From Escherichia coli (GTDB lineage: Bacteria > Pseudomonadota > Gammaproteobacteria > Enterobacterales > Enterobacteriaceae), in the NCBI RefSeq assembly GCF_050320075.1, contig NZ_CP190018.1: a stretch of DNA of 64,000 nucleotides. One strand, written 5' to 3'. Under the pieces are notes generated by a model. It was given only the letters and a program-made list of their open reading frames with translations. It searched no databases and was not told the DNA's origin. Below, piece by piece: positions 1,450-23,950 of the stretch; position 1 is the stretch's first letter; each line of letters begins with the position of its first letter. The position numbers and the translations under genes are program-made.

Positions 1450-2658
1450 ATGACCGTAAATTCTTCACGTAATGCATTGAAACGCCGAACCTGGGCGCTG
1501 TTTATGTTCTTCTTTTTGCCGGGCCTGTTAATGGCGTCCTGGGCAACCCGTACGCCTGCTATCCGCGATATTCTTTCTGTTTCGATCGCTGAAATGGGCG
1601 GAGTCCTCTTTGGTCTGTCGATCGGTTCAATGAGCGGTATTCTCTGCTCGGCGTGGTTAGTGAAACGCTTTGGGACGCGTAATGTCATCTTGGTCACGAT
1701 GTCCTGCGCATTGATCGGGATGATGATACTAAGTCTGGCACTCTGGCTGACATCGCCCCTGCTCTTCGCGGTTGGTCTCGGCGTCTTTGGGGCAAGTTTT
1801 GGTTCTGCGGAAGTGGCGATAAACGTTGAAGGTGCTGCCGTTGAGCGAGAAATGAATAAGACGGTTTTGCCGATGATGCACGGTTTTTATAGCCTGGGCA
1901 CGCTGGCAGGCGCTGGTGTCGGGATGGCACTAACGGCCTTTGGCGTTCCGGCAACGGTGCACATTTTATTGGCGGCGCTGGTAGGCATCGCGCCTATTTA
2001 TATCGCCATTCAGGCAATCCCTGATGGTACGGGCAAAAATGCTGCCGATGGCACCCAGCATGGTGAAAAAGGCGTACCTTTTTATCGCGATATCCAGTTG
2101 CTACTGATTGGTGTTGTGGTGCTGGCGATGGCCTTTGCCGAAGGTTCTGCCAACGACTGGTTACCCTTATTAATGGTTGACGGTCACGGTTTTAGCCCTA
2201 CTTCCGGCTCGCTGATTTATGCCGGTTTTACCCTGGGGATGACCGTTGGACGCTTCACTGGCGGTTGGTTCATCGACCGTTACAGTCGCGTTGCCGTGGT
2301 TCGGGCCAGTGCACTAATGGGGGCGTTAGGTATTGGGCTGATTATTTTTGTCGATAGCGCCTGGGTCGCTGGGGTGTCTGTTGTACTCTGGGGACTGGGT
2401 GCCTCGCTGGGCTTCCCACTGACCATTTCTGCCGCCAGCGATACCGGCCCCGATGCACCAACCCGCGTCAGTGTGGTAGCAACGACCGGTTATCTGGCTT
2501 TCCTCGTCGGGCCGCCGCTGCTGGGCTATCTCGGCGAACATTATGGATTACGTAGTGCAATGCTGGTTGTACTGGCGCTGGTTATTCTCGCGGCTATTGT
2601 CGCGAAAGCCGTCGCCAAACCCGATACCAAAACGCAGACGGCGATGGAGAATAGTTGA
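1450..2658 (+). CDS. ybjJ: MFS transporter YbjJ
   Basis: 402-aa ORF, multi-TM MFS-like sequence beginning [15 protein letters not shown]. Confidence 0.9.
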
Positions 2659-19568: not shown

Positions 19569-21107
19569 TTATTGCAAATCCGCGTCTTCAAAGCTGAAAC
19601 CGGTGTCTGGCATGATCCAAAAACCGGTCAGGTTTTTACTGTGTGCCGACACCAGTTTTTCTACCACCAGCGGGATCCACGGCGACTCTTGCCAGATGAT
19701 ATCCTGCGCCGCCTTATATAAACGGGTCTTTTCTGCCGGATCATTAGTTTTCAGTGCCTGAGCCAGGAAGTCATCCACCTGTTTATTGCTGTAAAACGCG
19801 GTATTAAACAGCGTCGGTGGCCAGTTCTGCGAGGCAAACAGCGGCGATAGTGCCCAGTCCGCTTCGCCGGTTGAAGCCGACCAGCCAGTGTAGAACATCC
19901 GCACGCCGCTCTCTTTTTGCCCTTTACCTTCAACTTCTGCCGCCCGCTGTCCGGCATCCATCGCAGTCACCTGGGCTTTAATCCCGACCTGCGCTAACTG
20001 CTGCTGGGTAAATTGCAGCACTTTCTGCGCGGTGCTGTGGTTATGTGACGACCACAGCGTGGTATTGAAACCGTTGGGATATCCCGCCTCTTTCAGTAAT
20101 TCGCGCGCTTTCACTGGATCGTAAGGCCACGGTTTATAACTTTGCGCGTAGGCGATACTCGGCGGTACCACACCAGTAGCTGGCGTTGCATAGCCCGCGA
20201 AGGCCACTTTCACCAGCGCCGGGCGGTTAATGGCGTAATTCAGCGCCTCACGGACCTTCGGGTTATCGAACGGCTTTTGCGTCACGTTCATACTGATATA
20301 ACGCTGCATAATTGACGGACTGGCCATCAACTCGATATTTTTGTTTTTCTCCAGCAGTGCGGCCTGCTCGTAGGGAATGGGGAAAGCAAACTGCGCTTCA
20401 CCGGTTTGCAGCATTGCCGCGCGGGTGTTGTTATCCGCCACCGGACGCCAGGTTATGCTGTCCAGTTTGGGCAATCCTGGCTGCCAGTAACCCGCGAATT
20501 TTTTCACCTTCACAAAATCGGTCTGATTCCAGGTATCCAGTTCATACGGCCCGGTTCCCACCGGATGAAAACCAATCTCCTTGCCATATTTTTCCAGCGC
20601 TGCCGGCGAAATCATCGCGGTCGCCGGATGGGCAAGAATATTAATAAACGCTGAGAACGGCTGTTTGAGGGTAATCTTTACCGTTGTTGGATCGATCGCT
20701 TCCGTTTTGGCAATATTCTTATACAGGTTGTAGCGTTTAAGATGATTCGCCGGATCGCTGGCCCGGTCCAGATTCGCTTTTACCGCCGCTGCGTTGAAAT
20801 CGGTGCCATCCTGGAATTTAATTCCTTCCCGCAATTTCACGGTGTATGTAAGGCCGTCATCGGAAACGGTATAACTCTCCGCCAGCACGTTTTTCAGTTT
20901 CATCTCTTTATCCAGACCAAACAGCCCCTGGTAAAACGATTTCGCTACGGCCTGAGATAACGTGTCATTTGCGTCATACGGATCGAGCGTGGTGAAGTTC
21001 GATCCTACCGCCACCACCACATCTTTGGCAGCGAATGCACAAGATGCCATCAACGCTGTCGCAATGCCCAGCGCCACTAACCCACTACGGTGTACAGCTC
21101 TTGCCAT
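19569..21107 (-). CDS. gsiB: Glutathione-binding periplasmic protein GsiB
   Basis: ORF 19569..21374; start at internal ATG (21105-21107) giving 512 aa with signal peptide [26 protein letters not shown]. Confidence 0.9.
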
Positions 21108-21126
21108 TTTATTCTCCGCCTGAATG

Positions 21127-22998
21127 TTATCTACGCATGAATGCGTATTCTGATTGTGGTTGTGCGACGTAATGCCCCGGCCCGACGCATTGCAACGAGA
21201 CGGCTGCCACCTCTTCGCCACGCAGATGAATATTGCTGGGAAGATCGTCCGACAGCAGTACACGCTGCGGTCGTTGTCGGGACGGTTCAGCGACCGGAAC
21301 TGCCGCCAGTAATTTACGCGTATAAGGATGCTGCGGGTTTTCGAAGACCGCGCGCCGTGGACCAATTTCAACAATTTGTCCGAGATACATCACCGCCACA
21401 CGATGACTAATCCGCTCTACCACGGCCATATCGTGGGAGATAAACAGATACGCAATGCCGAAATCACGCTGGAGATCGAGCAACAAGTTGATAATCTGCC
21501 CGCGAATAGAAACATCCAGCGCCGAGACGGCTTCGTCGGCAATGATCACTTTTGGATTCAATGCCAACGCGCGAGCAATGCAGATGCGCTGGCGCTGACC
21601 GCCGGAAAACTCATGCGGGTAACGCCAGGCATGTTCAGGTAACAGGCCCACGCGCTCCAGCAACCACGCAACGCGTGCAGCCGCTTCTTTACCTGTCAAT
21701 AAACCGTGTACGCGCAGCGGTTCGATAATCGAATCACCGATGGTCTGACGTGGGTCCAGCGAAGCGTAAGGGTCCTGAAAAATAAACTGAATATCCCGGC
21801 GCAATGCCTGAAGTTTGCCGGGTGACAAGGTATCGATTCGCTGACCGTTAAAGATAATTTCGCCGCCCTGCGATTCGACCAGGCGCAGCAACGCCCGCCC
21901 GGTAGTGGATTTACCGCTGCCAGACTCGCCCACCAGCGATAGCGTTTCGCCAGGCCAGAGATCAAAACTGACTTTCTCAACGGCATGCACTTCCCGCGTT
22001 ACGCGATTCAACAAACCGCTGCGCAAAGGGAAACGGGTGACCAGATTACGCACCCGTAAAACAGGTTCGCCATCCACCACCGTTTTCTGCTCGATGGGTG
22101 GTTCCTGTTTCGCTGGATGTTCAAGCGATATCAATGGGAAACGTCGGGGATAATCTAACCCTTTCATCGCACCAAGTTGCGGAACAGCAGCTAACAGCGC
22201 ACGGGTGTAAGGATGTTGCGGTGCATGAAAAATCTGTTCGACGCTACCCGTTTCCACCGCCTCGCCCTGATACATCACCAGTACCCGATCGGCAATCTCT
22301 GCCACCACGCCCATATCGTGAGTGATAAAGATAACGCCCATCGACATCTCTTTTTGCAATACTTTGATTAATTGCAGGATCTGCGCCTGAATAGTGACAT
22401 CCAGCGCGGTGGTTGGCTCATCGGCAATCAGCACCGCCGGGCGGCATGACAGCGCCATCGCAATCATCACTCGCTGGCGCATCCCGCCAGAGAGTTGATG
22501 CGGATAACGTGAAAGAATGGTTTGTGCCTCCGGAATGCGTACCTGATCCAGCATCCGCTTCGCCTCGACCATCGCTTCTTCACGACTGGCGTTCTGATGC
22601 AGACGAATTGATTCGGCAATCTGTTCACCCACAGTAAATACCGGGTTCAGCGATGTCATCGGTTCCTGAAATATCATCGCCATATCCGCACCGCGCACAT
22701 GGCGCATTTGTGCAGCGCTCTGCTCGCTAAGTTCAATCACTTCGCGACTGCGCCGCCGCAACAGCATTTGATCGCACTGCACTAAACCGCCCGCCTGTTC
22801 CAACAAGCGCATCAATGCCAGCGCAGTCACTGACTTACCAGAGCCGGATTCGCCAACAATTGCCAGCGTCTCACCGCGTTGCAGGCTAAAAGAGAGATTG
22901 CGGACCGCAGCTATTTTCTGCTGGTCCTGCATAAAGGCAATATTCAGATTTTCAACCGCCAGCACATCACCGGCATCAAGTTCATCACTGTGTGGCAA
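21127..22998 (-). CDS. gsiA: Glutathione ABC transporter ATPase GsiA (two ABC domains)
   Basis: ORF 21127..23106; start assigned to in-frame TTG (22996-22998) to match the recalled N-terminus (M)PHSDELD, 623 aa; two Walker A motifs (GESGSGKS). Confidence 0.8.
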
Positions 22999-23950
22999 CG
23001 GTGTCCCCTTTTTCACGGTAGATACCGGTGGTTGGCGTATCGCCTGCGTAGCCCCAGGCGCGATACATTCCTTCGGTGTTAAACGGTAGCGCGACATTGC
23101 CTTCATGGTCGATAGCGATTAAGCCACCGCTACCGCCAAGCGCAGGGAGTTTTTCCATTACTACCCGCTCGCAGGCTTCCGCGAGACTTAATCCGCCGTA
23201 ATCCATTAACGCGGCGATGTCATATGCCGCCAGCGCGCGGATGAAGACTTCGCCCGTGCCGGTACATGAAACCGCCACACTGGCGTTATTGGCGTAGCAT
23301 CCGGCACCCACTAAGGGACTATCGCCAACTCGTCCGGGTAATTTATTGGTCATTCCGCCCGTGGACGTGGCTGCCGCCAGATTGCCGTCTAAATCCAACG
23401 CCACGGCCCCCACGGTGCCCATTTTCTGTTTTTCATCCAGTGGCGCACCGCTATGGTCGAGGACTGTTGCCCCTTCCTCACGCGCTGCCATTAGTTGTTC
23501 ATAACGCAAAGGCGTGGAGAAAATCTCCGGTGAGACGCGCTCCATGCCATGAGCAAACGCAAAATTTTCTGCCCCTTCGCCAATCATCATCACATGCGGG
23601 CTTTGCTCCATCACCAGCCGGGCGGCAAGAACCGGATTACGCAGATGACTAACGCCCGCCACCGCACCGGCTTTCAGGGTGTTACCATCCATCACACAGG
23701 CGTCCAGTTCATGGGTTTCATCACGCGTAAAGACAGCGCCAATTCCGGCGTTAAACAGTGGACACTCTTCCAGCAGACGCACCGCTTCCGTCACCACATC
23801 CAGCGCACTTTCGCCCGCTTCCAGCATTTTCTGCCCGGTTTCAACAATGGCAGACAGCGCCTCGATGTAGCGTAATTCCTGTTGCAGACTCATCTGCGCG
23901 CGGCTAATTGCACCTGCGCCGCCATGAATTGCAATGACTGCTTTGCCCAT
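22985..23950 (-). CDS. iaaA: Isoaspartyl peptidase / L-asparaginase IaaA
   Basis: ORF 22985..23959; start at ATG 23948-23950 ([13 protein letters not shown]); Ntn-hydrolase sequence. Confidence 0.9.

Follow-up and report, generated by a model that had tools for sequence, protein, structure and literature searches.

Classic pairs of translationally coupled genes within operons, such as trpB-trpA and trpE-trpD, are joined by ATGA or TGATG junctions. The junction between iaaA and gsiA, located on the minus strand of a 64,000-nt stretch of Escherichia coli DNA (the window), resembles these pairs in the co-directional orientation of both genes, in a downstream Shine-Dalgarno (SD) site situated inside the upstream coding sequence and in stop and start codons lying only a few nucleotides apart. 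In contrast to the trp pairs, however, the overlap of iaaA and gsiA amounts to 14 nt instead of 1 or 4 nt, the start is TTG, a rare and weak initiation codon, and coupling is a prediction only. The gsiA gene of K-12 (b0829, formerly yliA; WP_001301279.1) likewise starts with TTG (window position 22998 corresponding to K-12 position 867520), encodes 623 aa and displays the same SD site and the same 14-nt overlap with iaaA. The junctions of K-12 and the window are identical, the proteins share 98.6% identity and a 901-nt query spanning the junction 97.9%, and the two gsiA genes show allelic differences only, e.g. D11 for N11, the window coming from a CFSAN061763-like strain. According to the literature, GsiA is the ATPase energising glutathione (GSSG/GSH) import: Gsi was reported as the sole GSSG importer of E. 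coli (PMC11719327) and the GsiA ATPase of Salmonella has been characterised (PMC5485302).

An ORF scan identified 23106..21127 as the longest minus-strand reading frame, which begins with ATG and comprises 659 codons for amino acids. A preliminary description of this locus had left open whether gsiA starts at this ATG or at an in-frame TTG further downstream. Recomputation of the reading frames reproduced to the base its coordinates for the long ORF and the TTG, located the iaaA stop codon (TGA) at 22987..22985, and gave overlaps of 14 nt from TTG and 122 nt from ATG, where 14 bp and about 120 bp had been reported, with an extension of exactly 36 codons. The gene identities proposed there, iaaA and gsiA, match the RefSeq names in the 100%-identical E. 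coli strain CFSAN061763, in which iaaA, gsiA and gsiB are annotated as neighbouring features. Thus, the geometry of both options was correct. The ambiguity itself did not hold up: although the long ORF offers rival starts, TTG is the start of choice because annotation, family profile, SD site, conservation, upstream stop codons and substitution patterns agree. The best explanation, to which a probability of about 0.93 is assigned, is that gsiA is translated from TTG at 22998..22996 into a protein of 623 aa (MPHSDELD...) by means of an AAGGGG SD site within the last codons of iaaA, that the 36 codons upstream belong to iaaA and not to GsiA, that coupling to iaaA is probable and that the overlap originated from one T-to-A change. 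Comparative and sequence evidence together establish where gsiA starts and that the extension is non-coding in the gsiA frame. The features are compiled in Table 1.

Table 1. Features of the iaaA-gsiA junction (positions refer to the whole window).
Feature	Position	Strand	Remarks
gsiA CDS from TTG	21127..22998	minus	623 aa + stop; ATPase of the Gsi glutathione importer with two fused ABC domains; RefSeq, NF007613, Pfam
Overlap of iaaA 3' end and gsiA codons 1-5	22985..22998	minus	14 nt; GTT GCC ACA CAG TGA
iaaA (beta-aspartyl peptidase) CDS, first gene of the cluster	22985..23950	minus	321 aa + stop; RefSeq, NF007589
Eight added iaaA codons, KGDTVATQ	22988..23011	minus	apparently from loss of the stop present in other genera
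gsiA start codon TTG	22996..22998	minus	in frame; aligned column is NTG across 26 loci
36-codon in-frame extension 5' of TTG	22999..23106	minus	part of the iaaA CDS, open but non-coding in the gsiA frame
Shine-Dalgarno site AAGGGGA	23004..23010	minus	6-nt spacer to TTG; inside iaaA codons 314-316
In-frame GTG (-6), candidate start of a 629-aa form	23014..23016	minus	judged not used
Upstream in-frame ATG (-36)	23104..23106	minus	made by iaaA codons CAT GAA; without Shine-Dalgarno site
TAA bounding the gsiA frame on the upstream side	23119..23121	minus	within iaaA codons GGC TTA ATC
Sigma-70-like promoter match TTTACA-17-TATATT, 5' of iaaA	24029..24057	minus	consensus match only

The TTG start is already present in reference annotations, and the overlap is ordinary and known. 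RefSeq/PGAP places the start of gsiA at TTG in the identical strain CFSAN061763 as well as in K-12, and in all of eight sampled E. coli genomes the RefSeq gsiA feature ends short of the ATG region. The K-12 allele is annotated in its 623-aa form on at least 1000 contigs, compared with 6 contigs for the 659-aa form, 12 for the 656-aa form and 3 for the 629-aa form. A 46-nt query across TTG (22975..23020) is found with at least 99% identity in 5153 of the 5356 matching E. coli genomes, the locus being present in 5,425 E. coli genomes. The translated frame scores 1377.7 bits against the NCBIfam equivalog profile of GsiA, NF007613 (cutoff 1077), and profile positions 1-623 align with residues 37-659 of the long ORF. 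Profile position 1 therefore coincides with the TTG codon, in line with the earlier proposal that the conserved N-terminus (CCA CAC AGT GAT GAA CTT GAT, PHSDELD) begins immediately behind it; since NF007613 was built from annotated proteins, the profile and the RefSeq start call are not independent. Pfam assigns two ABC_tran and two oligo_HPY domains to GsiA, in agreement with a fusion of two ABC ATPases carrying Opp/Dpp-type C-terminal regions. No solved structure of GsiA exists, the nearest entries being Rv1281c, DppD/F and OppD/F. Among solved structures the two-domain protein matches Rv1281c and DppD-type chains, and homology to Opp/Dpp-type ATPases of known structure starts at ORF residue 44-49, i.e. 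8-13 residues past TTG.

Initiation at ATG 23106 as the true or main start would give rise to a 659-aa GsiA carrying a 36-residue extension and overlapping iaaA by 122 nt. In its favour, no other ATG comes earlier in the longest ORF, initiation generally prefers ATG to other codons, a few GenBank submissions carry the long form (the 6 contigs mentioned above) and three Citrobacter species also have this ATG. Nevertheless, ATG-36 is strongly disfavoured as the main start and has very little probability left. It lacks an SD site, with a predicted anti-SD duplex energy of -1.5 kcal/mol, and is embedded in a predicted local fold of -21.8 kcal/mol, and the extension lies outside every family profile and every solved homologue. 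By comparison, the anti-SD duplex at TTG (AAGGGG) reaches -7.8 kcal/mol, which ranks in the best 1.7% of the 173 NTG triplets of iaaA and gsiA, whereas ATG-33 (23097) and GTG-6, two further in-frame candidates that the preliminary description had not named, yield -2.9 and -3.0 kcal/mol, respectively. A structured RNA masking the SD site and TTG was considered and rejected as evidence: the region from -30 to +33 folds with a predicted -18.5 kcal/mol, but with z = -1.41 and 14 of 200 shuffled sequences equally stable, and the arms of the hairpin differ in Citrobacter.

The preliminary description had named an alignment of GsiA orthologues as a check. Such an alignment was obtained from 26 loci of 24 Enterobacterales species, in which the start was read from the alignment column and iaaA stops were located by walking each iaaA frame. 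The codon aligned to TTG is an NTG triplet in 26 of 26 loci (TTG in 9, GTG in 9 and ATG in 8), and 24 of them carry a purine-rich SD-like motif (AAGGAG, AAGGGG, CAGGAG or GGAGG) at the same place. In the loci without iaaA (L008 and L014), gsiA begins at the same column, following non-coding DNA. Such constancy is not seen for ATG-36, which was found only in E. coli and Citrobacter (three of three E. coli and three Citrobacter loci or species examined) and is missing in E. albertii (CAC CAG), Superficieibacter (CGG GAA) and Leclercia; moreover, an in-frame stop 3-27 codons upstream of the aligned start shuts the frame in 13 of the 26 loci.

The same comparison bears on GTG-6 (23016), from which a 629-aa form beginning [11 protein letters not shown]... 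would be made. This in-frame codon lies near the conserved N-terminus, an A-rich stretch comes after it, and the form is annotated on 3 GenBank contigs; Leclercia also has GTG at this position. However, a divergent E. coli (L003) and E. albertii have GCG in its place and Citrobacter has GGG, and many genera carry the iaaA stop or another in-frame stop between the place of GTG and the conserved start. No SD site precedes GTG-6, since AAGGGG is located 3' of GTG-6 and 5' of TTG, and Table S3 of the INRI-seq study lists no alternative gsiA start even though the oligonucleotide spans this GTG. Use of GTG-6 is accordingly regarded as scarcely credible.

Substitution patterns likewise assign the 36 codons to iaaA. 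Over the extension, dN/dS ranges from 3.2 to 6.8 in the gsiA frame vs 0.01 to 0.03 in the iaaA frame, and translation in the gsiA frame gives a sequence that is not conserved among relatives. Synonymous sites of iaaA are under no added constraint here, as dS between E. coli and E. albertii is 0.75 in the extension vs 0.53 in the upstream part of iaaA. The open stretch of 40 codons in front of TTG is no longer than expected by chance: read in the gsiA frame, the 321 codons of iaaA contain 17 stops, the longest open run being 34 codons, and 16-23% of the open runs in the off-frames of gsiA reach 40 codons or more. On these sequence data, the extension codes for IaaA, is free of stops in the gsiA frame by chance and forms no part of GsiA.

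Dual initiation, with TTG as the main start and a minor extended proteoform made from ATG-36 or ATG-33 in E. coli and Citrobacter only, would be compatible with an open frame and with retention of the ATG in these two groups. Other E. coli genes have documented alternative in-frame starts (PMC9825163), among them speA and clpA (PMC9825163, PMC13245402), and gsiA shares with these more than one in-frame NTG near its 5' end. Unlike in speA and clpA, the upstream candidates of gsiA lack an SD site, are not conserved and have no ribosome or peptide record in the datasets examined. Of the features looked for in an N-terminally extended proteoform, neither an SD site at ATG-36 nor purifying selection in the gsiA frame was observed. 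The ATG is fully accounted for by the His-Glu codons of the conserved IDHEGN motif of iaaA, and ribosomes elongating on iaaA would occlude an internal site devoid of an SD. A minor proteoform of this kind is therefore considered very improbable.

The published datasets and full-text literature searched yielded neither direct evidence of initiation at gsiA nor an N-terminal peptide of GsiA. In the N-terminomics table of PMC13245402 (TRAINSPOTTER), b0828 (iaaA) is followed by b0835, gsiA being missing, and gsiA was not found in the Salmonella riboproteogenomics supplements. [quoted passage not shown] Full-text searches retrieved nothing on the gsiA start codon or its ribosome profiling and no match for ybiK, CysB and glutathione.

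For the upstream gene, the NCBIfam profile NF007589 aligns over its positions 1-321 with residues 4-324 of the longest iaaA ORF, and a start at 23950 is supported by the peptide [16 protein letters not shown], listed as N-terminal in PMC13245402 Table S1. At its C-terminus, IaaA terminates with ...GIYRE-TAA in Leclercia, Lelliottia, Enterobacter, Phytobacter, Superficieibacter, Pseudocitrobacter, Siccibacter and one MAG, and with ...[14 protein letters not shown] in Escherichia and Citrobacter; AAA at 23009..23011 occupies the place of TAA in those other genera. The primer sequence available for Salmonella gives the junction GAA TAA GGAG (PMC5485302). Leclercia, Lelliottia, Enterobacter, Phytobacter, Superficieibacter and Salmonella share with E. 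coli the gene order, the aligned start of gsiA and the place of the SD site. They differ in that the iaaA TAA lies directly before or within the SD site, leaving a gap of 9-13 nt without overlap, and in that gsiA starts mostly with GTG or ATG in place of TTG. In further genera, overlaps of 1, 4 or 8 nt were found. The 14-nt overlap thus appears to stem from a loss of the iaaA stop in Escherichia and Citrobacter, in which a single T-to-A change would have converted the TAA of TAAGGAG to AAA and extended IaaA by eight residues reaching into gsiA.

Both genes are co-directional, no terminator-like site is located at their junction (those on the minus strand are confined to 23273..23750, within iaaA), and iaaA lies upstream of gsiA in most of 80 related loci. 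The promoter match 5' of iaaA was discarded as evidence, since 2 matches in the region compare with 3.5 in shuffled sequences, which makes it a weak indication. In all of the 24 loci with iaaA upstream, the iaaA stop is at most 19 nt away from the gsiA start, the arrangement varying from a 19-nt gap to the 14-nt overlap. Because the SD site and start of gsiA are situated within or adjoining the iaaA stop in every one of these relatives, synthesis of GsiA is probably coupled to translation of iaaA. Linking the overlap to coupling, as had been suggested, is hence reasonable, with the coupling and its mechanism being predictions; statements on the operon and regulation of iaaA-gsi are based on gene arrangement and general knowledge. 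Ribosomes terminating iaaA translation at UGA, 11 nt beyond the first base of TTG, might re-initiate at TTG or, alternatively, might open the region for fresh binding of 30S subunits.

The one experimental hint of coupling comes from cell-free INRI-seq. The isolated gsiA region from -30 to about +125, which includes GTG-6 and excludes ATG-36, yielded zero footprints in five of five replicates at a transcript level of 151 CPM, while gsiB, gsiC and gsiD were detected with 69, 15 and 113 CPM, in an assay that misses 30% of annotated starts. This null result is compatible with a dependence on coupling and suggestive of it, although a non-functional start would look alike. A more far-reaching and rather doubtful possibility is that TTG is nearly silent alone and that GsiA is made only by iaaA ribosomes re-initiating about 11-14 nt upstream of UGA, the stop loss in Escherichia and Citrobacter having altered coupling by turning an abutting stop-SD-start arrangement into a 14-nt overlap; still less likely is a variant in which ATG-36 gives rise to a 659-aa minor proteoform in E. 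coli and Citrobacter.

Longest-ORF calling misplaces the start of gsiA in a minority of public records, and the correct start (TTG, 623 aa) is of use when designing expression constructs or clean deletions sparing iaaA and when compiling search databases for proteomics, even though the practical value is small and current understanding remains unchanged. The iaaA-gsiA junction provides a natural example of how the loss of one stop codon may create an overlap while the embedded ribosome-binding site is kept, and would lend itself to testing coupling where initiation relies on a weak TTG. If TTG were indeed silent alone, the output of the transporter ATPase would be tied to the output of IaaA.

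RefSeq names the genes at this junction iaaA (beta-aspartyl peptidase) and gsiA (glutathione ABC transporter ATP-binding protein), with gsiB next. On re-reading of the sequence, all positions given in the preliminary description for the gsiA open reading frame, its in-frame TTG and the PHSDELD motif proved correct, and the stretch between ATG 23106 and TTG 22998 (hereafter the extension) counts 36 codons, matching the 36 residues claimed. The overlap with iaaA amounts to 14 nt from the TTG, as had been stated, and to 122 nt from the ATG, for which about 120 had been given. In-frame candidate starts upstream of the TTG are named by their distance from it in codons (ATG-36, ATG-33, GTG-6).

Features at the iaaA-gsiA junction (positions in the window)
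Feature	Position	Strand	Detail
Longest iaaA ORF, start	23959	minus	ATG; MNTMGKAV
TAA closing gsiA frame upstream	23121..23119	minus	sequence
Longest gsiA-frame ORF	23106..21127	minus	ATG (ATG-36), 659 aa
ATG-33, in-frame gsiA candidate	23097	minus	sequence
GTG-6, in-frame gsiA candidate	23016	minus	sequence
IaaA C-terminal tail KGDTVATQ (eight residues)	22988..23011	minus	Escherichia and Citrobacter
In-frame TTG of gsiA	22998..22996	minus	PHSDELD directly after
iaaA stop TGA	22987..22985	minus	sequence

Strain CFSAN061763 is 100% identical over a 901-nt query across the junction, other full-length E. coli matches sampled show 97.6-99.1% identity, and the stretch is present at 95% or more in 5,425 of 5,426 complete genomes. 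Records labelled plasmid account for five of the 5,426 places matching window 22600..23500. The genome NZ_CM172609.1 matches over only 91% of this query and gives the gene just the generic label of an ABC domain protein, pointing to either a disrupted locus or an assembly fault.

GsiA most likely initiates at the TTG, via a Shine-Dalgarno (SD) sequence embedded in iaaA codons 314-316. The anti-SD pairing of the TTG (AAGGGG, 6-nt spacer) reaches -7.8 kcal/mol, within the best 1.7% of the 173 NTG triplets in iaaA and gsiA; the values for ATG-36, ATG-33 and GTG-6 are -1.5, -2.9 and -3.0 kcal/mol, respectively. Of the 5,356 E. coli genomes that match the 46-nt segment containing SD, TTG and overlap, 5,153 do so at 99% identity or more. 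For the identical strain as well as for K-12, RefSeq/PGAP starts gsiA at the TTG (623 aa). In eight E. coli genomes drawn from along the ranking, the 46 nt around ATG-36 carry the iaaA annotation and no other. Positions 1-623 of the GsiA equivalog profile NCBIfam NF007613 (623 positions) match long-ORF residues 37-659; since this profile was built from annotated proteins, it is not independent evidence for the start. Solved ATPases of the Opp/Dpp type show homology from long-ORF residue 44-49 onwards. Public collections contain all four possible products of the K-12 allele: at least 1,000 contigs carry the 623-aa form, against 6, 12 and 3 for the 659-, 656- and 629-aa forms. The start ambiguity is real for gene callers, yet the consensus is clear. 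The longest gsiB-frame ORF (19569..21374, minus, TTG, 601 aa) extends about 250 nt back into gsiA, and the RefSeq gsiB start lies at window 21107, 19 nt past the gsiA stop; this is a longest-ORF artefact of the same kind as at gsiA.

Scanning a single genome for each species gave 80 loci with GsiA relatives, most with iaaA directly upstream. The alignment of GsiA orthologues envisaged in the preliminary description was run on 26 Enterobacterales loci with alignable N-termini (24 from the scan and two E. coli RefSeq loci), and the TTG column holds a start codon in all 26 (TTG 9, GTG 9, ATG 8). An SD-like motif (AAGGAG, AAGGGG, CAGGAG, GGAGG etc.) precedes it in 24 of 26 and is absent in Pluralibacter UBA7423 (L009) and Rahnella (L034). 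An in-frame stop lies 3-27 codons upstream in 13 of the 26 loci, therefore an extension is impossible there. Among loci with an open frame, E. coli and Citrobacter alone possess ATG-36; the position reads CAC CAG in E. albertii and CGG GAA in Superficieibacter, and Leclercia likewise lacks the ATG. Two loci without iaaA (L008, L014) keep the gsiA start in this column of the alignment that holds the TTG, with AT-rich non-coding DNA leading up to it. These are the loci of Enterobacter sp. BIGb0383 and Kosakonia cowanii (2350..2503), with a GTG start; L008 keeps a relic of about 20 nt of the iaaA 3' end (TGIYRQ*), SD included.

The frame upstream of the TTG is open, as ATG-36 as main start or a minor extended proteoform would require. 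Read in the gsiA frame, the 321 codons of iaaA are interrupted by 17 stops, and the longest open run spans 34 codons; of the open runs in the off-frames of gsiA, 16-23% extend to 40 codons. Against this background a 40-codon open stretch is unremarkable, and this one carries no meaning. ATG-36 itself arises where the iaaA codons CAT and GAA meet (His-Glu of the conserved IDHEGN motif). Across the 108-nt extension, substitutions follow the iaaA frame, for which dN/dS amounts to 0.01-0.03, versus 3.2-6.8 in the gsiA frame, in which the peptide varies freely between close relatives. Synonymous divergence of iaaA between E. coli and E. albertii is not lower in the extension (0.75) than in upstream iaaA (0.53). 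The combined probability of the rivals to the TTG, namely GTG-6, ATG-36 as main start and an extended proteoform made in minor amounts, is no more than a few per cent.

The published data searched contained no experiment that directly determined the GsiA N-terminus. A 2026 N-terminomics table (PMC13245402) passes from b0828 to b0835, gsiA not being among its entries. For iaaA it gives a 16-residue N-terminal peptide (Table S1) that confirms 23950, the annotated start, and not the longest-ORF ATG 23959; RefSeq, NCBIfam NF007589 and this peptide agree on ATG 23950. INRI-seq (PMC9825163) assays initiation in a cell-free system, each annotated start being represented by a synthetic transcript that covers about -30 to +125. 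For the K-12 gsiA start region (equivalent to window 22870..23028), no ribosome footprint was detected at the TTG in any of five replicates, the transcript being well represented (151 CPM); gsiB, gsiC and gsiD were detected at 69, 15 and 113 CPM, and the iaaA start also went without detection. The gsiA oligo excludes ATG-36, and the complete Table S3 of alternative starts has no gsiA entry. As the method confirms about 70% of annotated starts, the null result is weak evidence.

In most genera, IaaA ends in ...GIYRE followed by a TAA abutting the SD (GAA TAA GGAG), leaving 9-13 nt to the gsiA start; a Salmonella deletion primer (PMC5485302) has the same arrangement. In Escherichia and Citrobacter, AAA (window 23009..23011) replaces the TAA of other Enterobacteriaceae (loci compared: L010-L013, L015, L017, L026, L045), hence IaaA gains its eight-residue tail and ends at the TGA that gsiA codons 4-5 provide. 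On this comparison, a single TAA to AAA change would have created the 14-nt overlap. The TTG start is independent of the stop loss, since Superficieibacter and Pseudocitrobacter combine the TAA with a TTG.

The observation of the gsiA TTG start was correct and well made, and is already known; gsiA is exactly as annotated in E. coli reference genomes. A hairpin predicted over SD and TTG was not significant (z = -1.41) and was set aside as evidence. In all 24 loci with iaaA, the iaaA stop and the gsiA start are at most 19 nt apart (19-nt gap to 14-nt overlap), and the TTG region, taken by itself, is silent in the cell-free INRI-seq assay. We infer translational coupling of gsiA to iaaA as the most economical reading. 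After termination at the iaaA UGA, ribosomes would move back by a few nucleotides and re-initiate at the gsiA TTG; alternatively, they may clear the gsiA site for a new 30S subunit. As co-directional overlaps go, the iaaA-gsiA junction with its embedded SD is ordinary, though slightly long.
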